Shown here: piece after piece, positions 1-14,208 of the stretch
Numbering within the stretch: position 1 is the first letter of the stretch
Layout: the number at the start of each line of letters is the position of its first letter
NCBI GenBank assembly: GCA_028707125.1
Contig: JAQTUX010000001.1
Location: forward strand, 13,639-77,638
Direction of reading: 5' to 3'
DNA from: Candidatus Omnitrophota bacterium
GTDB taxonomy: Bacteria > Omnitrophota > Gorgyraeia > Gygaellales > JAQTUX01
Length of the DNA: 64,000 nt
Notes under the pieces: model-generated
The model's database searches: none
The model's input: only the letters and a program-made list of their open reading frames with translations
Told to the model about the DNA's origin: nothing
Program-made: the position numbers and the translations under genes

Positions 1-509
1 TTTAACTCGAACACAAGAGAGCGGGAAAGCAGCGCTGAAACGATGGAGAAAAACGGGTTATGCACCGTTGCCCCGATAAGTATTATATTACCGTCTTCCA
101 CATCCGGCATAAGCACATCCTGCTGGAGCTTGTTAAAACGGTGTATCTCGTCAATGAAAAGCACGGTCCTTTTAGGGGCGCTGCCAAGGCGCGCCTTGGC
201 GCGGGCGATTATCTTCCTGAGGTCATCAACCCCTGAGGTAGTGGCGTTAATTGAAACAAAGTCGCTTTTTGTGGCATTGCTTATGCAGTAGGCGAGGCTG
301 GTCTTGCCTACCCCGGGAGGGCCGTAAAGTATGATAGACACCAGCCGATCCGCCTCTATGGCGCGGCGCAGCAGCTTGTCCTTGCCCAGTATGTGGGACT
401 GCCCCGCGAATTCATCCAGCGACCTCGGCCGCATGCGCACTGAAAGGGGCTGCTTCCTGGATATCTTGGGGGCCTGTTCGAGGAATAAGTCGAATGTGTC
501 GGAAGGCAT
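1..509 (-). CDS. rarA: Replication-associated recombination protein RarA/MgsA (AAA+ ATPase), N-terminal ~170 aa; 3' end runs off window start
   Basis: Reverse-strand translation from ATG at 509..507 (RBS GGGGAT upstream) gives MPSDTFDLFLEQAPKISRKQPLSVRMRPRSLDEFAGQSHILGKDKLLRRAIEADRLVSIILYGPPGVGKTSLAYCISNATKSDF...LFIDEIHRFNKLQQDVLMPDVEDGNIILIGATV. This is the RarA N-terminal region with Walker A GPPGVGKT and Walker B FIDEIHRF. It is not in the ORF track because it has no stop inside the window. Confidence 0.8.
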   Translation of the reverse strand, partial: MPSDTFDLFLEQAPKISRKQPLSVRMRPRSLDEFAGQSHILGKDKLLRRAIEADRLVSIILYGPPGVGKTSLAYCISNATKSDFVSINATTSGVDDLRKIIARAKARLGSAPKRTVLFIDEIHRFNKLQQDVLMPDVEDGNIILIGATVHNPFFSIVSALLSRSLVFEL

Positions 510-885
510 GATGTTTATCCCCGTCTCGTAAGATGTGCCAAAATTTTCTTCGATAATTTTGGCACACTCGGCGGGATTAATTCGCACAGCGGCTTACGTC
601 ACTATAGTTCCGTAAGCCGCGTGCTCATTAAAAATCCCCGCACTGTGCCGTCGGGATGGAAGCGTTGAACCTGATCGTTTCAGGTGGGCGCTCTCTCAAC
701 AAACCCTCGGGCCTGCTGAAGTCTAAGCACCCTTTATGTTGGTGTTGGCTCAACTATTTTCCGCATCCCGGCGAACACGGCAGGGATTTATTTACTCTCC
801 TTTAATGTATCGCCATAGTAAGTATACCACATTCTAAGCAGAAATTCAATGCCCACGCCTATTTTACCGTCCCGCGGCCGAGCGG

Positions 886-3045
886 TCAAGAGAATAAATC
901 GCCTCCCGTCTTCGCGGCCATTGGCAGGTTTATTGTGAACAGGGTGCCCTGGCCGTATTCGCTTGAAACCCCTATCCGTCCCTTATGGGCGGCTATTATC
1001 TTCTGTATCGCGAATAACCCCAGGCCGCTGCCTTTCTGCGTGGTCGCCTTGGTGGTATAAAAAGGCAAAAAGATGTGTTTCTTCCTCTCTTCGTCCATCC
1101 CTATGCCGTTATCTTGTATCTGGATCGTTATATATTGATCCGACTTGAACATCCTTATGATTATCTTCCCTTTGTAATCGTTAAAACCCTTCAATTCATT
1201 CCTGGCTATGGCGCCCTGCTTTACCTTAAGCGCGTCCATCGCGTTATCTATAAGATTGAAGAGCGCGTCCTGAAATAAGGCGGGGTCGCCTTCGATCCGA
1301 GGAAGGCCGTTTTCTATATGCTTCTCTATGGTCTCAACTGTTACGACGGCCCTGATCCTGGCCATCTCAACGGCGCGTTCGATCGCCTCCCTCGGATCGA
1401 ATTCCCCCGCCTGCTTCAACTGCCGCGGCTGGGAGAAATCCAGGAAGTCGTTGATGATCTTTCCGCCGTGTTTGGCGTTATCCTGAATGCGGTTCAGGGC
1501 ATACGATATGTCTTCAAATATCTTCTTTAATTCGCTTTTGGTAGACCTTTCAAAGTTGGTGAGCTTTATCGTGTCTATCGTATCCGATGTCGCCAGCATT
1601 ATGGCGTGAAAGCGGTTATTGATCTGATGGCTCATCCCGCTGGCCATAACGCCCATTGAACGCATACGCTCGGCGGCGAACAACTGCGCCTGGCTCCTCT
1701 GCGATTCTTCTATAAACTCGGTATTCTCAATTGCCAAAGCCGTCTGATTGGCAAGCATGCCGAAAACCGTAATATCGTCCTGCGTGTAGATGGCCCCCGA
1801 TGCCTTGGGCCCCAACACAAGAAAACCAAGAGATTTGTTCTTTACGAAAGAAGGGACAATAAGCCCGCACCTGATGTTGAATTTACCGTCCATGTCTCTG
1901 TCTATCTCCTCGGCAAACAGGGGCCGGCGCCTGACCTGAAGGTATTTGATCAAAGGCGCCTCAAGCGGCAGTTCCCGCGGGAAATCGGGGAAAAACCCTT
2001 TGACCGTATAGGGGTATTTCTGAATAAACCGCCCTTCCTCTTCCTCTGCCAGGTATATGCAGGCAAAGTCCACCTTTACCGCCCTGGCAACCTTGTAAAC
2101 AATTACTTTAAGCAGGCGCTCTAAATCCTTTATCAGGGTCATCGTGGCGGACAGCCGCCTGAGAACTTCCTGATAGCGGTGCTGTTCTCTAAAGATAACT
2201 CCTTCCGCGTGGCGGCGAAAGCAAGTATAAACGAAGGGGCCGAGGGTGGCAAGAAACAACGTTACCCAGGCCGCCTGTTTCCATAAACCGTATCTATAAC
2301 CCAGCAAAAAAGGGATGCCAAGGACTAAAATATAGACAAACAGGAATATGCCGGCACGGGTAACAGCAATCCTGATATCCATAAGTTGATGGCGGAATAT
2401 AGCGTAAGACGTTATTATAATATAAATACTGGCTAAAATGTTTCCATAAGGCAATATTGGGATATCATACCAAAGCGGATAATTAGTCGCGCCGCCGCCC
2501 CATCCAATGGCGGTTGCCAATAAGAGATATTTTAGTTGATTCCGTTTAAACCCGGTGGCTGTCTTATAGGATTTTACTATTAGAGCTACGCCGTATAAAA
2601 CAATCGATATCCAGATGGCGAAAAATGGATGAAATAATATGCCGGCGTTCGGCCAAAATCGGAAAACAGTTTTTTCTTCCACGCCGGGGATAAAATACGG
2701 AGAAAAACATGCCGCCAGAGAAACAACGGCAAACATATAAGCAAGCTTGATAACCCTCCTTTTCTCGAGGGAAATCCCTATCAGCTCCAATATATAATGC
2801 AAATAAAATACAGGAATAAATAGTGCCCCTGCCATTAAACCGCGGCAATACATAAGCGCCCTTAATTCATTGTCGGCAATTTGCCAGGCAAAATAGAAAT
2901 AACTCCAGACGCTTATGCTGAAGCAAAATAAAGCGTAGGCGATCCTCAGGGTATCTTTTAGCGTTTTTATGCGGCTCAAAATAAAAAGCCCCAGAACAGT
3001 GCTGGTTATGCCGTTGATCAATCCGCTTAAAGCGAAGAAACTCAT
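886..3045 (-). CDS. Sensor histidine kinase with N-terminal 7TM (7TMR-DISM-like) region, GAF domain, HisKA (H-box MSHQINNRFHAI) and HATPase_c
   Basis: 719-aa ORF with ~7 hydrophobic helices in the first 300 aa. It has a GAF-like segment (FACIYLAEEEEGRF...LGFLVLGPKASGAIYTQDDITVFGMLANQTALAIEN). The H-box is SHQINN, the N box NLIDNAMDA and the G boxes DNGIGM/GSGLGL. Confidence 0.85.
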   Translation of the reverse strand: MSFFALSGLINGITSTVLGLFILSRIKTLKDTLRIAYALFCFSISVWSYFYFAWQIADNELRALMYCRGLMAGALFIPVFYLHYILELIGISLEKRRVIKLAYMFAVVSLAACFSPYFIPGVEEKTVFRFWPNAGILFHPFFAIWISIVLYGVALIVKSYKTATGFKRNQLKYLLLATAIGWGGGATNYPLWYDIPILPYGNILASIYIIITSYAIFRHQLMDIRIAVTRAGIFLFVYILVLGIPFLLGYRYGLWKQAAWVTLFLATLGPFVYTCFRRHAEGVIFREQHRYQEVLRRLSATMTLIKDLERLLKVIVYKVARAVKVDFACIYLAEEEEGRFIQKYPYTVKGFFPDFPRELPLEAPLIKYLQVRRRPLFAEEIDRDMDGKFNIRCGLIVPSFVKNKSLGFLVLGPKASGAIYTQDDITVFGMLANQTALAIENTEFIEESQRSQAQLFAAERMRSMGVMASGMSHQINNRFHAIMLATSDTIDTIKLTNFERSTKSELKKIFEDISYALNRIQDNAKHGGKIINDFLDFSQPRQLKQAGEFDPREAIERAVEMARIRAVVTVETIEKHIENGLPRIEGDPALFQDALFNLIDNAMDALKVKQGAIARNELKGFNDYKGKIIIRMFKSDQYITIQIQDNGIGMDEERKKHIFLPFYTTKATTQKGSGLGLFAIQKIIAAHKGRIGVSSEYGQGTLFTINLPMAAKTGGDLFS

Positions 3046-3051
3046 ATCAAA

Positions 3052-4068
3052 TTATTCATTTTTATTCAATGCGATTATGTATTGCATTATCCCCTGTTGT
3101 TCATACCGGATATCAAGATCGCTTTCTTCAAATCCCGCGCTAATGAATATCCTCTTGAATTCCTCCTCGTCGCGATAAACAAGATCCCAATCTCCTCCCC
3201 ATTCCATAAAATGCACGGATGGATTGCTGTATTTATCCCTCACATTCGCGATAACCATATTCCCTTTGGGTAAAAGAAACCTCTTGAGGCCCCGGACTAC
3301 ATATACAGCGGTCCTTTCGCTAAAGTAATCAAAAAGCCCCGCGGAATAAATAAGGTCGTATTTCCCGCGAACATCTTTATCTTTCCTGGCGGTTATCCTT
3401 AAGGCATTCTCCCTGAGAAAATTAACATTGGTAAATCCGCTTAAGGCATCCCTCGCGAAATGTATGGCATTGATATCATTGTCATAGCAATCGAATATCG
3501 CTTTCTTGCACAATCCCTCATTTGAAAACAGGATCTCTCTCAATTCACGGCACGGCCCGGAGGCAAGATCCATAATCCGCAGCTTACAATCCTGCCGTCT
3601 TTTAATAAAATCGATGATCAGCCGCTTAAAATCCTCCTTTCGGTTTCTTACCGCTACCGATATGGCCGACATTTGAAAATAGTTATCAAATAGGCGATCA
3701 AATCCGGTTGTGGCGGGATTATTCTCATAGATATCTTCTATGATCTTGAAATCTCCGGTATAGCCAAAAGGTTTCCTGATGCTCCAATCGCAATAAACCC
3801 CTCTTGCGAATATCTGCCTGAATCTCTTAATAAACAACCGCTTAAGCTTGTAAACTTTATCTTCATTTCCCGCGGCCAGATTGGATCTTTCAAAATTCAT
3901 GATATCCCGGAAAACCTTGTTGATCTCCGAGTTGAACTCGCTCTGAAACCTGCCCCATTCATTGGGGCGCAGGGATAGATACGACTCGATCTCCCGCGCC
4001 CTCTTTTTATAGAGCTTAACGCTTGCCCTGAACGGCATCTCTATTTCCGATCTCAAAACAAGGCTCAT
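3052..4068 (-). CDS. Class I SAM-dependent methyltransferase-like protein with ~170-aa N-terminal domain of unknown function
   Basis: 338-aa ORF. Motif I-like IMDLASGPCRELRE is followed by an acidic DCYDND and by LIYSAGLFDYF, typical of Rossmann-fold methyltransferases. The start codon overlaps the corrected response-regulator stop (ATGA), and the ORF ends 6 nt before the histidine kinase. Confidence 0.5.
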   Translation of the reverse strand: MSLVLRSEIEMPFRASVKLYKKRAREIESYLSLRPNEWGRFQSEFNSEINKVFRDIMNFERSNLAAGNEDKVYKLKRLFIKRFRQIFARGVYCDWSIRKPFGYTGDFKIIEDIYENNPATTGFDRLFDNYFQMSAISVAVRNRKEDFKRLIIDFIKRRQDCKLRIMDLASGPCRELREILFSNEGLCKKAIFDCYDNDINAIHFARDALSGFTNVNFLRENALRITARKDKDVRGKYDLIYSAGLFDYFSERTAVYVVRGLKRFLLPKGNMVIANVRDKYSNPSVHFMEWGGDWDLVYRDEEEFKRIFISAGFEESDLDIRYEQQGIMQYIIALNKNE

Positions 4069-4449
4069 TTCTCTAACCCTAACCCCAGGTTAACGGCGTC
4101 AAAAAAACTATCCAGGTCAAACGGCTTATGCAGGAAAGCGATACAACCCAGTTTTCCCGCTTCGCCCTCTGTCTTTTTATCCGTGAAACCCGTGATAAAA
4201 ATAACCGGGGGGGATATTCTTTCCCCGCCCCTTCAACGTATCCCTGATCTGGCTGACCGTATCAACGCCGCTCTGCCCCGGCATACGGATATCGGAAATG
4301 ATCAGGTCAAAATCGCTTTCTTCGGCAAGAATGAGGGCGTCGTCGTACCTCTTAGCGATCAGGACCTCCAGGCCGCTTTTCTCAAGCAATTTACAAAACG
4401 TCTTCGTGATCAGTTCCTCGTCATCGATCACCAGGATTTTCTTTCGCAT
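4065..4449 (-). CDS. Single-domain response regulator (CheY-like receiver), interrupted by a +1 frameshift in a G7/C7 homopolymer (4207-4213)
   Basis: The N-terminal 90 aa (MRKKILVIDDEELITKTFCKLLEKSGLEVLIAKRYDDALILAEESDFDLIISDIRMPGQSGVDTVSQIRD) is a classic receiver. Removing one G from the 7-G run restores ...KNIPPVIFITGFTDKKTEGEAGKLGCIAFLHKPFDLDSFFDAVNLGLGLEK*, the canonical receiver C-terminus. Its TGA overlaps the ATG of the next gene. The span 4065..4449 is 385 nt, which is 3n+1 and consistent with a 1-nt insertion. Confidence 0.7.
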
Positions 4450-4538
4450 CCGCGGGCCCTCCTTACCCTGTTCCTGCGGATATTATATCACCTTACTGGT
4501 AAGGTGTAAATAATATTTGTTTATGTTAGAGTAATAAT

Positions 4539-4754
4539 ATGGAAAGAGACATCAAGGCGAGTTATTCTCAGCGGCTGCGGTCGTTAAGAAAGCAATACGG
4601 CTACACCCAGCAGGAGCTTGCCGAGAAGGCAGACATAGAATATAAGCACATCCAGCGCCTGGAAAGCAAGAGGCCCTGCGACGTAAAACTCTCCACGCTG
4701 GAAAAGATAGCCAGGGCATTCAATATCTCCCTTCCTGAATTACTGGATTTTTAA
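4539..4754 (+). CDS. XRE-family helix-turn-helix transcriptional regulator
   Basis: 71 aa containing YTQQELAEKADIEYKHIQRLESKRPCDVKLSTLEKIARAFNISLPELL, a Cro/C1-type HTH. Confidence 0.8.
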   Translation: MERDIKASYSQRLRSLRKQYGYTQQELAEKADIEYKHIQRLESKRPCDVKLSTLEKIARAFNISLPELLDF

Positions 4755-4768
4755 CCGCCCCCGCCCCT

Positions 4769-5455
4769 TCAGAGCATTCCCTTATCCGCGAAACTGAAAT
4801 AAGCGTCCTTACCTATTATTATGTGGTCAAGCACCATGATCTGAAGCGCGGCGCCTGATTGCGCCAACCCCGACGTAAACTTCTTGTCTTCGCTGCTGGG
4901 ATTGACATGGCCTGAGGGGTGGTTATGCACGCAGATGATCGCCGCCGCGTAATGCTGCAGCGCCTTATGAAAAACCTCCCTTATCAGGGGCCGCACGTTA
5001 TTCACGGTGCCTTCCGCTATCTCCACAATGTCGGTTATACGGCTCTGCGAATTAAGGAATACGGCCTTGACCACCTCTTTTTTCAGGCTTCCCATGCGCG
5101 GCGTTAAAATATCCGCTATGTCTTTTGAAGACCTGATCTTAAGGCTGCTTCTGTCCGCCCCCTGCTCCTTAAACCTTCTGCCTATTTCGATCGCGGCTTT
5201 GATCCGCGCGATTTTGGCGGCACCCAGCCCTTTAAATTCCTTCCAGCGGGAAAAATCAACGTCGGCCATATCGCGGAATACGCCGAATTGCTTCAGGATC
5301 GCTCTTGCCAGGTCTATCGCGCTCTTCCCCTTCACCCCTGAGCCCAAAATGACGGCCAAAAGCTCTGTGTCGGTCAGTTTGTGTTCGCCGTAGCGCAAAA
5401 GCCGTTCCCGCGGCCGGTCGTCCTCAGGCCACGAGTTAATCCCCTGTTCAGCCAT
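4769..5455 (-). CDS. radC: DNA repair protein RadC (JAB/MPN domain, UPF0758)
   Basis: 228 aa. The N-terminal HhH region (ELLAVILGSGVKGKSAIDLARAIL) and the JAMM motif HNHPSGHVNPSSED are diagnostic of RadC. Confidence 0.85.
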   Translation of the reverse strand: MAEQGINSWPEDDRPRERLLRYGEHKLTDTELLAVILGSGVKGKSAIDLARAILKQFGVFRDMADVDFSRWKEFKGLGAAKIARIKAAIEIGRRFKEQGADRSSLKIRSSKDIADILTPRMGSLKKEVVKAVFLNSQSRITDIVEIAEGTVNNVRPLIREVFHKALQHYAAAIICVHNHPSGHVNPSSEDKKFTSGLAQSGAALQIMVLDHIIIGKDAYFSFADKGML

Positions 5456-5460
5456 TTTTA

Positions 5461-5510
5461 CCCTCTACTATATAGACGTAAAAAGCGGCGTTTTACTTGC
5501 AAAAAAGTTT
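5461..5510 (-). promoter_or_regulatory. Conserved promoter/leader cassette copy A (TTTTTTGCAAG-N-TTTACGTCTATATAGTAGAGGG) immediately upstream of radC
   Basis: The reverse complement reads AAACTTTTTTGCAAGTAAAACGCCGCTTTTTACGTCTATATAGTAGAGGGTAAAAATG. It is near-identical to the copies at 11058-11108 and ~51533-51585 and ends in the RBS of the downstream gene. Confidence 0.5.
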
Positions 5511-6918
5511 AAGAAAAATAGGCGTGGGGAATCCCTGATAGACAGGAGTTAAATATGAGGAGGGCTGATATCAGCAGCTCGCATGTCGCGGCTACGATGC
5601 CACAGAGGGCGGGGATCATAAAACTGAAGGCAAGAAGCAGGAATCCCGAGGCAACAACGATACTCAAATAAGGCACGACAACCATATTGGCAAAAATGGC
5701 TATGGGCGAGACAATGCCGAAATAATGCCAAACCGGCAGGGCAGTGCCCAGCCAGGCAGCCAGGGATACGCAAAACGCGAGTATTGGAAACTTCACTATC
5801 CTCTTCTTCAATAACACCTCCGGAAATAGCCGGCGTATCCTGGGAGACAGCCAGACAATGGAAAGCACGCTTATAAACGAGAGTTGAAACCCTATGTCAA
5901 ATAACTGGTTAGGATTTATAAGCAGTATGATAAACGCGGCGATGGCAAGGGAATTATAAATATTCACCTCCCGCTCCAGCACATAACCCAAAAGCATAAC
6001 CTCCGCCATCAGCGTTGCCCTGACAACCGAAACCCTGGCACCGGTAAGCAGGCAATAAAATGCCAGCAGGGACATCGTGATAATGAAACGCGGCTTTCTG
6101 GATATCCTAAGGGACTTAAGCAGCGATAAAAAGATGAAAGCGGCTATCCCTGTATGCAGGCCCGATACCGCGAGTATGTGGACTGTGCCGGTCCTCATAA
6201 ACAACTCATTGACCTGCCGCGGCGGCGCCCTTCTTTCGCCAAGCAGCATCGCGCTGTACAGATTGGCTGAGACCGGAGAAAGATAATCGTTCAATATAGC
6301 GATCAGCCTGTTTTTCAAAGATACGGCTGCCTGCTTTATAATGCTGCCCCGGTTATGTGAAATCACTTTGATCCCCGATCCCGTATTAACAGTCGCTATT
6401 GAATATATGCCATTCCGCCTCAGATACGCCCGGTAATCAAACCTTCCGTCACCGAAGTTATACGGCCAGTCGATCTTGCCTGTTATTGAGACCTCGTCGC
6501 CAAAACGCGCGTTCATATCGGCGGGCATCCTTACCAGAGCCTTGCCTGCGACAGCAAATTCCCTGCTATTGAATATAATCCTTTTAGCATCCAACACAAA
6601 GGCCTGCCTTTTATTGCCGATCTCGCGCGGCTCTTCCGCGACTATGCCTACTATATCTATGGCTTCGGTAACGTAATTAAAATTGCTGACGTGATTATGG
6701 GGCAGGACTTTTGTGTTGGCGTAAAGCAGCGCGCCCAGGAAGAAAAACAGCGCCTGCGCCGGAACGGCTGAATATGCCCGGCGCCTGAAGAACACGAAAT
6801 TAGCGGCTAAGGCGGCGGCTGTCAATATTAAGAACGCGGATAGAGGAAGGGGAAAAAAATGCGCGGCAAGAATACCGGCGATCAAAGAAACGGTTATGCC
6901 GATCAAGGGATACTTCAT
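5509..6918 (-). CDS. comEC: ComEC/Rec2-family competence (DNA internalization) membrane protein, no beta-lactamase domain
   Basis: 469-aa polytopic membrane protein with N-terminal DUF4131-like and ComEC-like regions. It overlaps comEA by 4 nt. Confidence 0.7.
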   Translation of the reverse strand: MKYPLIGITVSLIAGILAAHFFPLPLSAFLILTAAALAANFVFFRRRAYSAVPAQALFFFLGALLYANTKVLPHNHVSNFNYVTEAIDIVGIVAEEPREIGNKRQAFVLDAKRIIFNSREFAVAGKALVRMPADMNARFGDEVSITGKIDWPYNFGDGRFDYRAYLRRNGIYSIATVNTGSGIKVISHNRGSIIKQAAVSLKNRLIAILNDYLSPVSANLYSAMLLGERRAPPRQVNELFMRTGTVHILAVSGLHTGIAAFIFLSLLKSLRISRKPRFIITMSLLAFYCLLTGARVSVVRATLMAEVMLLGYVLEREVNIYNSLAIAAFIILLINPNQLFDIGFQLSFISVLSIVWLSPRIRRLFPEVLLKKRIVKFPILAFCVSLAAWLGTALPVWHYFGIVSPIAIFANMVVVPYLSIVVASGFLLLAFSFMIPALCGIVAATCELLISALLIFNSCLSGIPHAYFS

Positions 6919-7271
6919 TCCATTACGATAAGATCCTTGAACCTCGCGTACTTACCGGGCCCTACGCCTTTTACCTTTCTGATGTCCTCCTCAAAGAAAA
7001 ACGGCCCCTGCGATTTACGGTATTCGATTATCCTTTCTGCCAACGCCGGCCCTATGCCGGGCAAGGATATCAGCTGCTCCCTGGTGGCAATATTTATGTT
7101 TATCTTTTCCCGCGCGCGCTGTGTCCGCGACTCTGGCGGCTTTGAGAAGATCACGCCGCGGGGGATTTCAGGAGAGAGGCCCTTTACAAAAATACTTATC
7201 AGCAGCCCCGTCAAGATCACGGCGCCGATAAATAATAAAATTCCCCGTTCCTGGCGGGTAAGATTCAGCAT
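6915..7271 (-). CDS. comEA: ComEA-like helix-hairpin-helix DNA-binding competence protein
   Basis: 118 aa with one N-terminal TM helix and a tandem HhH (NINIATREQLISLPGIGPALAERIIEYR...GPFFFEEDIRKVKGVGPGKYARFKDLI). Confidence 0.85.
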   Translation of the reverse strand: MLNLTRQERGILLFIGAVILTGLLISIFVKGLSPEIPRGVIFSKPPESRTQRAREKININIATREQLISLPGIGPALAERIIEYRKSQGPFFFEEDIRKVKGVGPGKYARFKDLIVME

Positions 7272-7326
7272 ATCTGGTAATCTTCAAATATTTATGTTAT
7301 TATAACATACGCAACGGAGGAGAAAA

Positions 7327-7731
7327 ATGAAAATAAGGCGCGGTTTTACGCTAATCGAAGTTTTAATAGTTGTAATGGTCATTTCTATCGTGGCGGCGCT
7401 GGCCATACCCAATATACTAAGGTCAAAATTGACCGCCAATGAATCGGCCGCCCAGACAACGCTGAAGACCATCGCGGTTGCCTGCGAGAACTACGCGACG
7501 GCAAACAACGGCCTTTACCCCGCATCTGAAACACAACTCCTTGAAGCGGAGCCGCCATATCTGAACGGCTCATACGACGGGCAGACGATCCAGGGGTATA
7601 AATACGCCTTTAATCTCACGAACGCGAGTTATCTTGTCATTGCCTCGCCTGCCAGCTGCGGGGCGAACGGCTCAAAGACCTATACGATCGTAACCGGCGG
7701 GATCCTTACGGGGGCGGACTGCGGCGCCTAA
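7327..7731 (+). CDS. Prepilin-type N-terminal cleavage/methylation domain protein (type IV pilin / competence pseudopilin-like)
   Basis: MKIRRGFTLIEVLIVVMVISIVAALAIP is a class III signal (G^FTLIE) followed by a hydrophobic helix. The gene is divergent from comEA. Confidence 0.75.
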   Translation: MKIRRGFTLIEVLIVVMVISIVAALAIPNILRSKLTANESAAQTTLKTIAVACENYATANNGLYPASETQLLEAEPPYLNGSYDGQTIQGYKYAFNLTNASYLVIASPASCGANGSKTYTIVTGGILTGADCGA

Positions 7732-10175
7732 ACCACTATATTGACTAATTTTCCGGGGATAATTATAATCTTCTTGAGGGGGGAATCTTTGACCCACTGC
7801 CTTACCTTCTCATCAGATAAAACGGCTTTCCTTAAATCCTCTTCGCTGATATCCGGGCTCACTTCAACTTTAGAACGCACCTTGCCGTTCACCTGCACTA
7901 TTATCGCCGCGATATCCGCCTTAAGCATGCCTTCCTCATAGGAAGGCCAGCCCGACTTAAAAACACTGCCTTTCTCGCCTAGCATCTGCCACATCTCCTC
8001 TGCCAGATGCGGGATAAACGGCGCCAGCAGACATACCAGAGCCCTTACAGCGGCTGATTCTGTCTTGCTCTTTATCTCCACCTTATCGCCCACGCTTTTA
8101 TATATCTCATTGACCAGTTCCATGCAGGCGGCGATACAGGTGTTGAATTTAAAACCGCCCTCCATATCATCGGTTATCTTCTTTATTACGCTGTGCGTCT
8201 TGCGGGCCAGATCCTTGTTATCCGGTCCTGCCTTGACGCGCGCCTGGCTTGAGGCCTCGACTAATCTCCAGAGCCTGCTCACAAATCTGCTGGAACCTTC
8301 TATGCCCCTGTCATCCCACTCAAGCTCTGCCTCAGGAGGCGCGGCAAACAAAATGAATAGCCTTAAGGTATCTGCCCCGTATTTCCCGATCACTCCGTCG
8401 GGGTCAACAACGTTACCGCGCGACTTGGACATGACCTCGCCTTCTTTCAAGACCATGCCCTGCGTAAGCAAGTTAACGAACGGTTCATTAAAATCTATCA
8501 GCCCCAGGTCCTTGAAAAATTTAGTGAAAAAACGGGAATAAAGAAGATGCAGTATGGCATGCTCTATGCCTCCGATGTACTGGTCAACCGGCATCCAGTG
8601 TTTGGCCTCGCCCTTGTTGAATATCTCTTTTTTGTCTTTTGGCGAGCAAAACCTCAGGAAATACCAGGAAGAATCAAAGAATGTCGCCATTGTGTCGGTC
8701 TCGCGGCGGGCAGCCGATCCGCATTTGGGGCATTTTACCTCAACAAAACTCTTCACCTTTCCTAACGGCGAACCGCCCTCGCCGCTGATCTTGACCTTCC
8801 TGGGCAGCTCAACCGGCAGGTCCTTCTCGGGAACCGGTACAATGCCGCATTTTGAGCAGTATATAATCGGGATGGGCGTGCCCCAGTAGCGCTGGCGGGA
8901 GATCAGCCAGTCGCGCAGGCGCCAGTTTACCACGCGCCTGCCAATGCCTTTTTGTTCCATCCATTCCGCGATCTTTACCTTTGCCTCGTTGTTGGGCAGT
9001 CCGTCAAACTGCGCTGAATTTACCTGAACACCGTCGGCCTCGTATGCCTCAGAAAGATCTTCTGCTCTGATATTCTGATCCTCTGATCCTCTGATAACTA
9101 TCCGCATGGGCAGATTGTGTTCTTTAGCAAATAGAAAATCCCTCTGATCATGCGTAGGCACCGCCATGATCGCGCCTGTGCCGTATTCCATAAGCACATA
9201 ATCGGCGATCCATATAGGTATCTCCTCGTTGTTCACCGGATTTATGGCGTAGGCGCCTGTGAATACGCCTTCCTTTTTTACGTCCTGCGAGGCGCGCGCG
9301 ACCTTCGTCTCTTTGGCTACCTTACTAATAAAGTCAAGATCCTGCTTCTCCTGCTGCCTGCCTTTTATGAGCTGTTTTACCAATGGATGCTCCGGAGCAA
9401 GCACGATGTAGGTCGCGCCGAAAATAGTATCCACGCGCGTGGTAAATACCGGGATCGTCTGGCCGCTGTCTTTTGCCTTGAAATATATCTCAACCCCCTC
9501 TGAACGGCCGAGCCAGTTTTTCTGCATCGCCACAACCCGCTCCGGCCATCTGCTCAACTGGTTTAAATCCTCTAATAATCTCTCCTGATATTCGGTGATC
9601 TTCAGATACCACTGCTCAAGCTCCTTCTGCGCCACTTCATTCTTGCAGCGCCAGCATCCTCCGTCTATCACCTCTTCGTTGGCAAGGGTTGTCTCGCAGG
9701 ACGGGCACCAGTTTACGCTTGAGGCCTTCCTGTAGGCAAGCCCGCGCTCAAACATCTTCAGAAATATCCATTGGTTCCAACGGTAATATTCCGGCAGGCA
9801 GGTGGAGATCTCCCTGCCCCAATCGTAGGAGAAGCCCATGCGCTTAAGCTCCGCCTTCATCCACTCAATACATTTAAGCGTCCAGGCCTCCGCGTCGGTA
9901 TTGTTTTTTATGGCGGCGTTCTCCGCGGGCTGGCCAAAGGCGTCAAAGCCGACAGGATGCAGGACGTTAAAGCCGCGCATCATCTTGTAGCGGGCGATCA
10001 CGTCGGCAATGGTGTAGTTGCGCACGTGGCCCATATGGATCTTCCCCGACGGATAAGGAAACATCTCCAGGCAGTAATATTTCTTCCTTTTACTATCCGG
10101 CCTTACGGAATATGTCTTATCCCTCTGCCAGCGCCTCTGCCATTTTTCTTCGATCTTTTTAAAATCGTATTTCAT
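7728..10175 (-). CDS. leuS: Leucyl-tRNA synthetase
   Basis: 815 aa with the HIGH motif HMGHVRNYTIADVIARY, the KMSKS motif (VMSKSRGNVVDP), and editing and zinc regions typical of LeuS. Confidence 0.95.
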   Translation of the reverse strand: MKYDFKKIEEKWQRRWQRDKTYSVRPDSKRKKYYCLEMFPYPSGKIHMGHVRNYTIADVIARYKMMRGFNVLHPVGFDAFGQPAENAAIKNNTDAEAWTLKCIEWMKAELKRMGFSYDWGREISTCLPEYYRWNQWIFLKMFERGLAYRKASSVNWCPSCETTLANEEVIDGGCWRCKNEVAQKELEQWYLKITEYQERLLEDLNQLSRWPERVVAMQKNWLGRSEGVEIYFKAKDSGQTIPVFTTRVDTIFGATYIVLAPEHPLVKQLIKGRQQEKQDLDFISKVAKETKVARASQDVKKEGVFTGAYAINPVNNEEIPIWIADYVLMEYGTGAIMAVPTHDQRDFLFAKEHNLPMRIVIRGSEDQNIRAEDLSEAYEADGVQVNSAQFDGLPNNEAKVKIAEWMEQKGIGRRVVNWRLRDWLISRQRYWGTPIPIIYCSKCGIVPVPEKDLPVELPRKVKISGEGGSPLGKVKSFVEVKCPKCGSAARRETDTMATFFDSSWYFLRFCSPKDKKEIFNKGEAKHWMPVDQYIGGIEHAILHLLYSRFFTKFFKDLGLIDFNEPFVNLLTQGMVLKEGEVMSKSRGNVVDPDGVIGKYGADTLRLFILFAAPPEAELEWDDRGIEGSSRFVSRLWRLVEASSQARVKAGPDNKDLARKTHSVIKKITDDMEGGFKFNTCIAACMELVNEIYKSVGDKVEIKSKTESAAVRALVCLLAPFIPHLAEEMWQMLGEKGSVFKSGWPSYEEGMLKADIAAIIVQVNGKVRSKVEVSPDISEEDLRKAVLSDEKVRQWVKDSPLKKIIIIPGKLVNIVV

Positions 10176-11812: not shown

Positions 11813-11885
11813 TGGAGCTGGAGGGATTTGAACCCTCGACCCCTTGCATGCCATGCAAGTGCTCTCCCAGCTGAGCTACAGCCCC
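11813..11885 (-). tRNA. tRNA-Ala (anticodon GGC)
   Basis: Minus strand reads GGGGCTGTAGCTCAGCTGGGAGAGCACTTGCATGGCATGCAAGGGGTCGAGGGTTCAAATCCCTCCAGCTCCA and folds as a cloverleaf. The anticodon loop is AUGGCAU, and the G3:U70 Ala identity pair is present. CCA is not encoded. Confidence 0.85.
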
Positions 11886-12482: not shown

Positions 12483-12565
12483 GCCGAAGTGGCGGAATGG
12501 CAGACGCGGTAGCCTCAAAAGCTATTGAGGGCAACCTCATGAGAGTTCAAGTCTCTCCTTCGGCA
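12483..12565 (+). tRNA. tRNA-Leu (anticodon CAA), class II with long variable arm
   Basis: GCCGAAGTGGCGGAATGGCAGACGCGGTAGCCTCAAAAGCTATTGAGGGCAACCTCATGAGAGTTCAAGTCTCTCCTTCGGCA has a 7-bp acceptor stem, anticodon loop CUCAAAA, variable stem-loop GAGG-GCAA-CCTC and T-arm GAGAG-TTCAAGT-CTCTC. It closely resembles E. coli tRNA-Leu. Confidence 0.85.
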
Positions 12566-14077: not shown

Positions 14078-14136
14078 TATCCGGTAGGAGTTATCAGCCC
14101 TGTTGAGGCGGTTAAGAGGCAAACCCCATTGCCTGC
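14078..14136 (-). promoter_or_regulatory. Fluoride riboswitch (crcB RNA motif) in 5' leader of crcB
   Basis: Minus strand reads GGCAAUGGGGUUUGCCUCUUAACCGCCUCAACAGGGCUGAUAACUCCUACCGG. It aligns with the crcB-motif consensus and with the Thermotoga petrophila aptamer (GGCGAUGAGGCCCGCCCAAACUGCCCUGAAAAGGGCUGAUGGCCUCUAC). The P1 helix GGCAAUGGGGUUUGCC, AACCGCC, and GGCUGAU...CUCCUAC are all present. An RBS AAGGAGGGG and the crcB ATG follow. Confidence 0.8.
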
Positions 14137-14208
14137 TTTTGAATGCCTTGGAAAAAATCAGATATCGCTCATTATTATATTATTTCTTTTCCGGATCGCA
14201 ATACAAAT

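Follow-up and report, generated by a model that had tools for sequence, protein, structure and literature searches.

A PhcB-like methyltransferase and an adjoining membrane histidine kinase as a candidate small-molecule signaling module in Omnitrophota

Phc-type systems and the Omnitrophota locus

To our knowledge, Phc-type signaling has been worked out only in the Ralstonia plant pathogens, and we know of no experimental characterization of any PhcB-family member outside Ralstonia. The Omnitrophota, to which the locus described here belongs, are very small, largely uncultured cells. In the CqsA-CqsS system of Vibrio and the LqsA-LqsS system of Legionella, the gene for the synthase of a hydrophobic signal adjoins the gene for a multi-pass membrane histidine kinase, which detects the signal in the membrane. 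Such gene pairs of autoinducer synthase and polytopic sensor kinase are a parallel to the arrangement considered here, although CqsA and LqsA are PLP-dependent acyltransferases and are not known to be related in sequence to our methyltransferase.

In Ralstonia, PhcB, a protein of 464-468 aa, makes methyl 3-hydroxymyristate, and PhcS senses this compound (PMC8578825). The Ralstonia reference protein that we used has 464 aa, lies in a phcB-phcS-phcR locus and matches the GMI1000 phcB primer peptide. The PhcQ receiver has been proposed to modulate PhcB, and in Xanthomonas the receiver domain of the sensor RpfC is described as binding and restraining the DSF synthase RpfF (both cited in PMC6989110). 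Both are precedents for the contact control of a signal synthase by a receiver that is proposed below; RpfF, however, is a crotonase and not a methyltransferase, and the RpfC receiver belongs to a hybrid kinase.

The window, that is, the whole stretch of 64,000 nucleotides that was analyzed, contains a three-gene operon with the features given in Table 1. The promoter-like site lies about 33 nt 5' of the regulator ATG, has 11 of 12 hexamer matches plus the extended -10 TG, and is the best-scoring one within positions 400-5000. The distance of 6 nt from the stop codon of the methyltransferase to the ATG of the kinase is as the initial annotation had said, and its call of a 7TM/GAF histidine kinase was borne out by matches to HisKA_7TM, GAF, HisKA and HATPase_c. 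The kinase has the classical H-box and N/G boxes, with H473, D600-N601, D645xGxG and G672xGxG. No fatty-acid or export genes were found within the operon.

Table 1. Features of the operon (positions are those of the window)
Feature	Position	Strand	Basis
Three-gene operon, receiver to methyltransferase to kinase (Candidatus Omnitrophota contig JAQTUX010000001.1)		-	
Sigma-70-type promoter-like site, TTTACA / 17 nt / TG-TATAAT	4482..4510	-	consensus match only
Response-regulator receiver, 5' part, open ORF of 90 aa (final ~10 aa out of frame)	4177..4449	-	
C7 homopolymer (G7 on the plus strand), +1-base frameshift site in the regulator gene	4207..4213	-	
Receiver, 3' part, shifted frame (VIFITGFTD...HKPFD...LEK, then stop)	4065..4205	-	
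PhcB-like class I SAM-dependent methyltransferase, 338 aa; helical N-domain ~1-160, Rossmann ~160-338	3052..4068	-	
Sensor histidine kinase, 719 aa	886..3045	-	domain matches, conserved residues, orthologue position
Kinase domains: polytopic 7TM-type membrane region ~1-280, GAF ~306-440, HisKA with H473, HATPase_c 586-710		-	

The initial annotation had likened this gene order to that of phcB-phcS-phcR, and the comparison holds in part. As in the species complex of Ralstonia solanacearum, the methyltransferase shares homology with PhcB across ~230-280 residues, so that the likeness goes beyond gene order; the next gene after that of the methyltransferase is the kinase gene (the phcB-phcS gap is 0 nt); the kinase combines a polytopic membrane sensor with a HisKA/HATPase core; and receiver proteins are encoded within the operon. 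The sensor and regulator, in contrast, are unlike PhcS and PhcR/PhcQ. Only the kinase cores of PhcS and our kinase align (27% identity), the 7TM and GAF sensor being not alignable with that of PhcS. The regulator is a bare receiver of 124-127 aa encoded upstream, whereas PhcR (REC-HisKA-HATPase) and PhcQ (REC with a C-terminal domain) are encoded downstream. The organism is also of a different phylum, and no PhcA-type LysR regulator is in view at the locus.

The methyltransferase and its relatives

The remote-homology comparison with PhcB that had been suggested for this protein gave a clear result. BLASTP against PhcB of Ralstonia sp. 25C yielded 25% identity over 281 aa (E 3e-18), and hhalign of 25 orthologues against six Ralstonia PhcB sequences yielded a probability of 99.4% (E 4.7e-22) over 204 columns, covering residues 83-311 of the window protein. 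The motifs KP(F/L)GY(A/T)GD(F/Y), A(V/H)RNR, Y(S/C)AGLFDY and W.L(V/I)YRDE are common to both, and members of the family bear the KEGG name PhcB at JGI. Judged from these alignments, the methyltransferase is a true PhcB homologue, related by more than generic SAM-binding motifs. It does not have the full-length PhcB architecture: at 338 aa it lacks the first ~125 residues of PhcB, whose N-terminal region spans ~125-190 aa, and the alignment begins at about PhcB residue 174-203. Identity to PhcB is just 25-28%, so the substrate and product may differ.

The separate N-terminal region that had been noted in this protein is all-helical, with the Rossmann fold starting at about residue 160, and it is the most conserved piece, at 65% identity versus 54% for the Rossmann part (17/17 loci). 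The AF2 model has a mean pLDDT of 85. Its best match among solved structures is 3ocj from Bordetella parapertussis (329 columns, E 6e-12, TM 0.52/0.58), and the other closest ones are the keto-acid C-methyltransferases SgvM and MrsA, PKS C-methyltransferases and O-methyltransferases; the top 50 structural matches include neither protein nor RNA methyltransferases. The initial annotation had named a CheR-type or a housekeeping RNA or protein methyltransferase as the outcome that would undo its proposal, and the HMM searches returned neither. A CheR-type enzyme is rejected in view of these small-molecule structural neighbors and of the absence of any match to CheR or CheR_N, even at E up to 10. 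A housekeeping RNA or protein methyltransferase is rejected for want of an NCBIfam equivalog match: at E <= 0.01 the window protein has 0 NCBIfam matches, and its relatives reach NCBIfam models only far under the cut-offs. PF12147 (Methyltransf_20, "putative methyltransferase") has no match in the window protein at E up to 10, but orthologues 61-65% identical to it score 28-31 bits (cut-off 21), the match extending upstream of the Rossmann fold.

We surveyed the neighborhoods of the homologues, as had also been suggested, and found that they nearly always adjoin two-component genes, contrary to the possibility that the two never occur together. A 7TM kinase lies directly 3' of the methyltransferase in 58/62 non-redundant Omnitrophota-type loci, while in Nitrospirota-type relatives the place after the methyltransferase is taken by MASE8/PAS hybrid kinases. 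The pairing of methyltransferase with kinase is conserved across phyla, and by these synteny counts the gene arrangement is well beyond chance. The stand-alone receiver is less constant: it is directly upstream in 39/60 loci and absent in about a third, but it is there in 28 of the 32 loci whose methyltransferase shares 60% identity or more with that of the window. Spacing between receiver and methyltransferase genes differs among the four loci in which it was read: the two genes overlap by 4 nt in the window and in L005, but are 16 nt apart in L003 and 45 nt apart in L001.

Several loci depart from the basic layout. Two (L017 and L024) have the order receiver, methyltransferase, receiver, aldehyde dehydrogenase, kinase, and in a third (L040) the receiver and methyltransferase are followed by a fusion of a receiver to HMG-CoA reductase. 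The methyltransferase of L007 and L116 is beside genes for ketoacyl synthase, a FabA/ApeP-like dehydratase, ketoacyl synthase, ACP and an FAD oxidoreductase. The aldehyde dehydrogenase, HMG-CoA reductase and fatty-acid-synthase-like neighbors of the variant loci offer hints, from gene context only, that the product could be a diffusible 3-hydroxy fatty acid methyl ester. In L115 a PhcR-like architecture adjoins a relative.

PilZ-fused PhcB-like methyltransferases, found in Nitrospirota, in MAGs labeled Deltaproteobacteria and in some Omnitrophota-type contigs, share the helical and Rossmann core with the window protein (P0121 is 56% and P0208 28% identical to it) and, as in the window, a membrane sensor kinase is encoded directly after them. 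Genes for c-di-GMP proteins (GGDEF, REC-HD-GYP) are often near, as they are in some Omnitrophota loci. These proteins, often named PhcB by JGI, carry an N-terminal PilZ domain (RxxxR, D/NxSxxG), whereas the window protein has no PilZ domain and a separate receiver gene in front. The closest non-orthologous relatives, at 56% identity, have a fused PilZ with RxxxR and DxSxxG, a 7TM kinase next and no upstream receiver. PilZ is present in 31 of 44 long family representatives, and this points to a putative control of synthesis by c-di-GMP; no receiver-methyltransferase fusion was found among the same 44. A published description of PilZ-fused PhcB-like methyltransferases was not found in the literature searched. 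There is precedent for a PilZ module gating a SAM-dependent methyltransferase in Pseudomonas aeruginosa, where the PilZ adaptor MapZ binds CheR1 at high c-di-GMP (bioRxiv 10.1101/2020.02.11.943704), although CheR1 acts on proteins and belongs to another methyltransferase family, MapZ is a protein in its own right, and no CheR signature is seen in the window enzyme.

A frame break in the receiver gene

The initial annotation had the response regulator ending in the ATGA at 4065-4068 and hence translationally coupled to the methyltransferase. The ATGA is present and the overlap is seen, but the ORF opened by the ATG at 4449 is just 90 aa long and closes with the TAA of 4177-4179, and the TGA that overlaps the methyltransferase ATG is a stop of the shifted C-terminal frame only. 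The coupling is thus broken in this genome by a frameshift that the earlier reading had missed. One surplus C in the C7 run is the cause; C6 would be in frame. The final 46 codons of the receiver lie beyond the run in a different frame, with no further stops. Deletion of one C gives a receiver of 127 aa that scores 81.5 bits on Response_reg and is a bare receiver domain, the shifted 3' part aligning with intact orthologues of 124-125 aa. Of the classical receiver residues, the truncated 90-aa product retains D9, D10 and D53 and lacks T86 and K108, which are recovered only by repair of the frame.

The same C7 is present in a separate Logan assembly (L113) of run SRR22315508, with 0 mismatches over 5,490 nt, although the two assemblies may share reads; the gene call for the regulator is, there too, a Response_reg gene of 90 aa. 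All 47 orthologous regulator genes are in frame, with runs of at most five bases at the C7 site, and C7 is judged not to be a conserved recoding site because these orthologues have no such run. The sole other 7-base G/C run of the window sits in an intact ORF.

It is a real possibility, if somewhat short of an even chance, that the module is decaying in this genome, in other words that the frameshift is a genuine inactivating one and the operon is no longer a functional unit, whatever the family does elsewhere. The surplus base on which two assemblies agree, the loss of T86 and K108 from the product, and the absence of the run from the 47 orthologues are all consistent with decay. The methyltransferase and kinase ORFs, however, are full length and keep the invariant residues of their families, the shifted segment of the receiver is free of stops throughout, and the agreement of the assemblies counts for less if both derive from the same reads. 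With the 3' segment intact, the lesion may therefore be of recent origin or vary within the population, +1 slippage on CCC-C may bypass it in part, or it may be a homopolymer error at the level of the reads.

Possible working of the module

We give about an even chance to the operon being an Omnitrophota counterpart of the Phc-type units, one that both makes and senses a small molecule; we infer both the chemistry and the loop between synthase and receptor. All three genes would be driven by the promoter at ~4500. The methyltransferase would methylate a small metabolite, probably carboxylate-bearing and lipid-like, its helical N-domain serving as a substrate cap. The product would partition into or through the membrane, and the neighboring kinase would detect it, or a related cue, by way of its unusually conserved 7TM region, autophosphorylate on H473 and transfer its phosphate to the stand-alone receiver whose gene lies just upstream. 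Having no output domain, the receiver would act by protein contact, and its most economical target would be the co-translated methyltransferase, so that a feedback loop on synthesis would be closed. The receiver would then fill the regulatory position that is held by the fused c-di-GMP-binding PilZ in sister lineages. Since no receiver is fused to the methyltransferase among the 44 long representatives, receiver control is argued from position, coupling, and the analogies with PilZ and with receiver-enzyme fusions. With the receiver gene frameshifted in this genome, the loop here would be open, inactive, or dependent on slippage at C7.

The same genes could also be explained if the cue that the kinase sensed, with its 7TM or its GAF region, were an unrelated one from membrane or cytoplasm and the receiver, or PilZ, simply switched the methyltransferase on or off. 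The product of the methyltransferase would then be no signal for the kinase and might be a metabolite, a modified lipid or a component of the envelope. We think this explanation rather unlikely. It fits the observation that regulatory modules precede enzymes throughout the family, as a fused PilZ, as a receiver before the methyltransferase or aldehyde dehydrogenase, or as the fusion of a receiver to HMG-CoA reductase. It also fits the far greater conservation across loci of the methyltransferase (60-70% identity) than of the kinase (27-56%), and the wholly different kinase sensors of different phyla (7TM-GAF, MASE8-PAS and the PhcS type). Within the kinase, however, conservation is highest in the 7TM sensor, at 42% identity against 35% for GAF and 31% for the kinase core (the 7TM region coming first in 16/17 loci), although its higher identity is perhaps partly inflated by hydrophobic composition. 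The adjacency of methyltransferase and kinase, moreover, outlasts changes of regulatory module and sensor across three phyla, which is more than an output enzyme needs, and the sole characterized member of the family, PhcB, makes the ligand of the adjacent kinase (PMC8578825). Far less probable still is a CheR-like adaptation device in which the kinase, the receiver or another signaling protein is methylated: the gene does sit between two signaling genes, one orthologue is named "chemotaxis methyl-accepting protein methylase" at JGI, and a few relatives have weak, partial, sub-threshold CheR matches (e.g., 16.8 bits versus a cut-off of 27), but the window protein has no such match, its homology points to PhcB, its structural neighbors act on small molecules, and the variant loci hold aldehyde dehydrogenase, HMG-CoA reductase and fatty-acid-synthase-like genes.

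Returning to the Phc-type reading, the conserved pairing points to an undescribed small-molecule signaling module in the phylum. A broader proposal, which we regard as tentative and on balance doubtful, is that PhcB-like methyltransferase-kinase pairs are a widespread, unrecognized class of chemical signaling outside the Burkholderiaceae, in which the adjacent polytopic kinase would read a methylated, lipid-like product and synthesis would be gated by fused PilZ and c-di-GMP or by receiver phosphorylation, forming in Omnitrophota a nearly phylum-wide system between cells or between cell and host. If the products are signals, they would offer a route into the chemical communication of uncultured, very small bacteria, and the PilZ-fused proteins would be a new class of c-di-GMP effector enzymes; even if the methyltransferase is an output enzyme, the family would exemplify small-molecule methylation gated by a kinase or by c-di-GMP. 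Both the core of PhcB and its association with a membrane kinase are found again in Omnitrophota and Nitrospirota-type genomes, and the methyltransferase family is large: a library of 1.84 billion yields 4,917 cluster representatives of it at E <= 0.001.

Layout of the operon and the regulator frameshift

The genes for the response regulator, the methyltransferase and the sensor kinase all lie on the minus strand and are arranged head to tail. The 6 nt that separate the methyltransferase stop from the kinase ATG had been given in the initial annotation, and we find the same spacing in the window sequence. The kinase retains H473 and its N, G1 and G2 boxes. Beyond the kinase comes a 6S RNA gene that has a promoter-like site of its own, and the operon unit therefore stops at 886. 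At the other end, the operon and a divergent XRE/Cro-type gene share an 89-nt intergenic region in which the operon promoter lies; the XRE gene is not conserved beside the module in L001, L003 and L005, which are annotated Omnitrophota loci. The neighbourhood from 4769 to 7731 has a competence and pilus flavour.

Features located in and around the operon
Feature	Position	Strand	Remarks
6S RNA gene	631-789	-	Rfam RF00013, 67.3 bits (gathering score 46.4); directly 3' of kinase
Promoter-like site of 6S RNA gene	849-821	-	TTGAAT, 17 nt, TG-TATACT
Sensor histidine kinase	886-3045	-	719 aa; HisKA_7TM 13-224, GAF 306-440, HisKA, HATPase_c 586-710
Methyltransferase	3052-4068	-	338 aa
Sigma-70-type promoter-like site, strong	4510-4482	-	TTTACA, 17 nt, TG-TATAAT; directly 5' of regulator ATG at 4449
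XRE/Cro-type HTH gene	4539-4754	+	71 aa; divergent from operon
RadC	4769-5455	-	
ComEC-like membrane protein	5509-6918	-	
ComEA-like protein	6915-7271	-	
Prepilin-type protein	7327-7731	+	
LeuRS	7728-10175	-	next after prepilin-type gene
tRNA gene	11813-11885	-	
tRNA gene	12483-12565	+	
Fluoride riboswitch	14078-14142	-	RF01734, 55.4 bits

The regulator stop had been described as overlapping the methyltransferase start. The ATGA at 4065-4068 does exist, but its TGA belongs to a shifted regulator frame: the open reading frame from 4449 terminates at 4177 with a product of 90 aa, and the other 46 codons (VIFITGFTD...HKPFD...LEK and stop) are found in a different frame, from 4205 to 4065. The break comes from a C7 run (4207-4213). 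With six Cs in its place, the product is a receiver of 127 aa, which has a Response_reg score of 81.5 bits and aligns with intact orthologues of 124-125 aa; T86 and K108 are missing from the 90-aa product as encoded.

A conserved programmed frameshift can be ruled out, because all 47 orthologous regulator genes are in frame and none has a C/G run exceeding 5 at this site. The frameshift is therefore either a read-level error or a lesion specific to this lineage, rather than a conserved recoding signal. Systematic homopolymer assembly error is unsupported, on small numbers: the 64-kb window has just one other 7-base G/C run (G7), which is within an intact ORF, and an independent Logan assembly of run SRR22315508, though possibly built from the same reads, is identical to the window over 5,490 nt, C7 run included, and likewise calls a 90-aa gene. 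The shifted segment holds no further stops, so the change is recent or variable, or else it can be bypassed. If tRNA-Pro slipped by +1 on CCC-C, the regulator might come back in frame, and the receiver lesion may leave the circuit open or inactive in this genome.

Relationship of the methyltransferase to PhcB

Pfam returned only near-threshold generic matches for the window methyltransferase (Methyltransf_31, 26.8 bits against a cut-off of 27), and PDB sequence searches with the protein and with its profile returned no match. One NCBI entry, from a Candidatus Omnitrophica MAG, has the identical protein sequence. This entry aside, the best 120 of 647 matches comprise 119 relatives that are 60-70% identical over the full length, all from Omnitrophica or Omnitrophota where an organism is named. 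The whole N-terminal region is conserved in the orthologues, with many invariant aromatic and charged residues, and the orthologues exceed the cut-off of PF12147 (Methyltransf_20), the match starting ahead of the Rossmann fold. In an AlphaFold2 model (mean pLDDT 85, pTM 0.82), seven helices extend to residue 157 and are followed by a class I fold. The best solved matches in Foldseek are 3ocj, which has no assigned function, and the alpha-keto-acid C-methyltransferases SgvM and MrsA, together with PKS C-methyltransferase domains, O-methyltransferases, phosphoethanolamine methyltransferase and Coq5. The initial annotation had allowed for a CheR-type or housekeeping enzyme; NCBIfam has no model naming the family and no match for the window protein, and CheR, PrmA and RNA methyltransferases are absent from the top 50 solved structures in Foldseek. 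A protein-methyltransferase role is unlikely.

The JGI name of one orthologue (P0013) and of many remoter relatives is [quoted passage not shown], which is the KEGG name of PhcB. We retrieved phcB by converting a GMI1000 allele-specific primer (supplement, PMC6989110) into a codon-degenerate pattern and scanning species-representative genomes; 13 of the 23 matches were in Ralstonia. A degenerate pattern from the OE1-1 phcB qPCR primer matched no genome, and the OE1-1 peptide YKIKHYLD reads LRVKHYLD in the Ralstonia species representatives. An equation of YKIKHYLD with VYKLK, which is invariant in the window family, was rejected, as BLASTP places PhcB 174-183 (KHYLDILEGE) on window residues 51-60 (KVFRDIMNFE). 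In Ralstonia sp. 25C, the pattern falls in a 464-aa ORF, which fits the reported PhcB length of 464-468 aa (PMC8578825). Next to it, across a 0-nt gap, is a 447-aa membrane kinase, and beyond that a REC-HisKA-HATPase protein; the locus is phcB-phcS-phcR. Directly upstream of phcB, on the same strand, is the gene of a 345-aa protein that partially matches a receiver (L105, 1759-2796). This protein may correspond to PrhX. The latter has been named "PhcB neighbouring regulator" (PMC10788593).

The window methyltransferase and Ralstonia sp. 25C PhcB are 25% identical over 281 residues by BLASTP (E 3e-18). The remote-homology search proposed at the outset, run as a profile-profile comparison of 25 orthologues with six Ralstonia PhcB sequences, bore out the resemblance, with a probability of 99.4% and E 4.7e-22. 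Motifs beyond SAM binding are common to both: KP(F/L)GY(A/T)GD(F/Y), A(V/H)RNR, Y(S/C)AGLFDY and W.L(V/I)YRDE. The window protein is a PhcB-family enzyme, equivalent to PhcB from about residue 174 on and without the first ~125 residues. We tried the PhcB N-terminus as a cryptic PilZ domain and dropped the idea, unsupported by Pfam and by profile comparison. The likeness to the phc arrangement stands for the methyltransferase and its adjoining kinase but not for the sensor: the window kinase and Ralstonia PhcS align in their catalytic cores alone (27%), and the sensor regions do not align.

Conservation of the methyltransferase-kinase pair

For synteny, we combined annotated contigs with 80 metagenome loci, used the window proteins as tblastn queries to score neighbours, collapsed the loci to 72 clusters at 97% identity and counted only evaluable clusters. 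This was the neighbourhood survey suggested by the initial annotation, and the association held: a two-component kinase of the 7TM type begins directly after the methyltransferase in 58 of 62 clusters. A stand-alone receiver is directly upstream in 39 of 60 clusters, and in 28 of the 32 whose methyltransferase shares at least 60% identity with that of the window.

The four exceptions are instructive. In L017 and L024, the methyltransferase is separated from the 7TM-GAF kinase by two inserted genes, for an aldehyde dehydrogenase and a further stand-alone receiver; L017 reads receiver, methyltransferase, receiver, aldehyde dehydrogenase, kinase (5052-8982), and L024 has the same opening of receiver, methyltransferase, receiver (5018-5389). 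A carboxylate-making dehydrogenase beside a putative carboxyl methyltransferase is suggestive. L040 has a receiver, the methyltransferase and then, in the usual kinase position, a receiver fused to a full HMG-CoA reductase (2303-3859; 363 bits), which suggests an HMG-CoA reductase under phosphorylation control. In L080, a methyltransferase remnant fused to an integrase precedes a PilZ-methyltransferase and kinase. Elsewhere, L005 has two 721-aa 7TM-type kinases (3372-5537 and 7071-9236) on either side of the receiver-methyltransferase pair, followed by two REC-HD-GYP genes, an arrangement that links the module to c-di-GMP turnover.

Seventeen non-redundant loci with full-length genes were compared with the window, loci too diverged to align being excluded. 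Mean identity was 65% for the methyltransferase N-domain and 54% for its Rossmann domain; for the kinase it was 42% in the 7TM region, a figure that hydrophobic composition may inflate, 35% in the GAF domain and 31% in the core. The N-domain exceeded the Rossmann domain in all 17 loci, and the 7TM region exceeded the kinase core in 16. By this measure the N-domain, to which the initial annotation had given no function, is nevertheless the most constrained part of the module, and the membrane sensor is not the fast-evolving part of the kinase.

The wider family and a possible circuit

A profile search of 1.84 billion cluster representatives found 4,917 proteins at E <= 0.001, of which 429 reach E <= 1e-30. 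In the nearest non-orthologous relatives, P0121 (56% identity) and P0122, the N-terminus is a PilZ domain that bears RxxxR and DxSxxG motifs. P0121 is without an upstream receiver, and 6 nt beyond it begins a 7TM kinase whose on-contig N-terminal part of 218 aa is 38% identical. Among 44 long family representatives (P0121-P0266), 31 have an N-terminal PilZ; a receiver-methyltransferase fusion, sought as direct support for receiver control, was found in none. Ahead of the methyltransferase core stands either a fused PilZ or a receiver encoded by its own gene. PhcB is about equally distant (E ~1e-22) from the PilZ group and from the Omnitrophota group, and tblastn of a PilZ-methyltransferase against plasmids returned no PhcB, only weak PKS and Rhizobium methyltransferase-domain matches.

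In Nitrospirota-type relatives, a PilZ-methyltransferase precedes a MASE8-PAS-HisKA-HATPase-REC kinase. One such locus has GGDEF and REC-HD-GYP genes ahead of it. A different arrangement has a 351-aa methyltransferase followed by a hybrid kinase and a protein of PhcR-like architecture. The methyltransferase-kinase pair is kept across three phyla despite a complete change of sensor type and regulatory module.

We suggest that the methyltransferase methylates a small carboxylate or lipid-like compound, that the adjacent kinase would read the methylated compound, and that the receiver may, by analogy, feed back on the methyltransferase. Receiver control of a signal synthase has a precedent in RpfC-RpfF and has been proposed for PhcQ-PhcB (PMC6989110); MapZ-CheR1 is a precedent for PilZ control of a methyltransferase (bioRxiv 10.1101/2020.02.11.943704). 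The main rival explanation, also compatible with the data, is that the methyltransferase is no more than an output enzyme under the control of the kinase, with a product that is not a signal. We regard the module as Phc-like: its synthase is truncated, its sensor and its regulatory input are of other kinds, and it belongs to another phylum. Our literature search found no paper mentioning phcB with Omnitrophota or Nitrospirota, and the PilZ surveys consulted make no mention of this PilZ-methyltransferase fusion; the PilZ-bearing PhcB-like proteins would be a large, apparently undescribed class of putative c-di-GMP-gated methyltransferases.

In two further Nitrospirota-type cases, the first gene of a conserved cluster encodes a PhcB-like methyltransferase of 426 aa, and the genes after it encode a ketoacyl synthase, a FabA/ApeP-like dehydratase, a second ketoacyl synthase, an ACP and an FAD oxidoreductase (L007, 5001-10925; L116, 5001-11082). 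A hybrid kinase follows the cluster in one of the two, L007, whose methyltransferase (P0316) has PilZ-type RxxxR and DISETG motifs.
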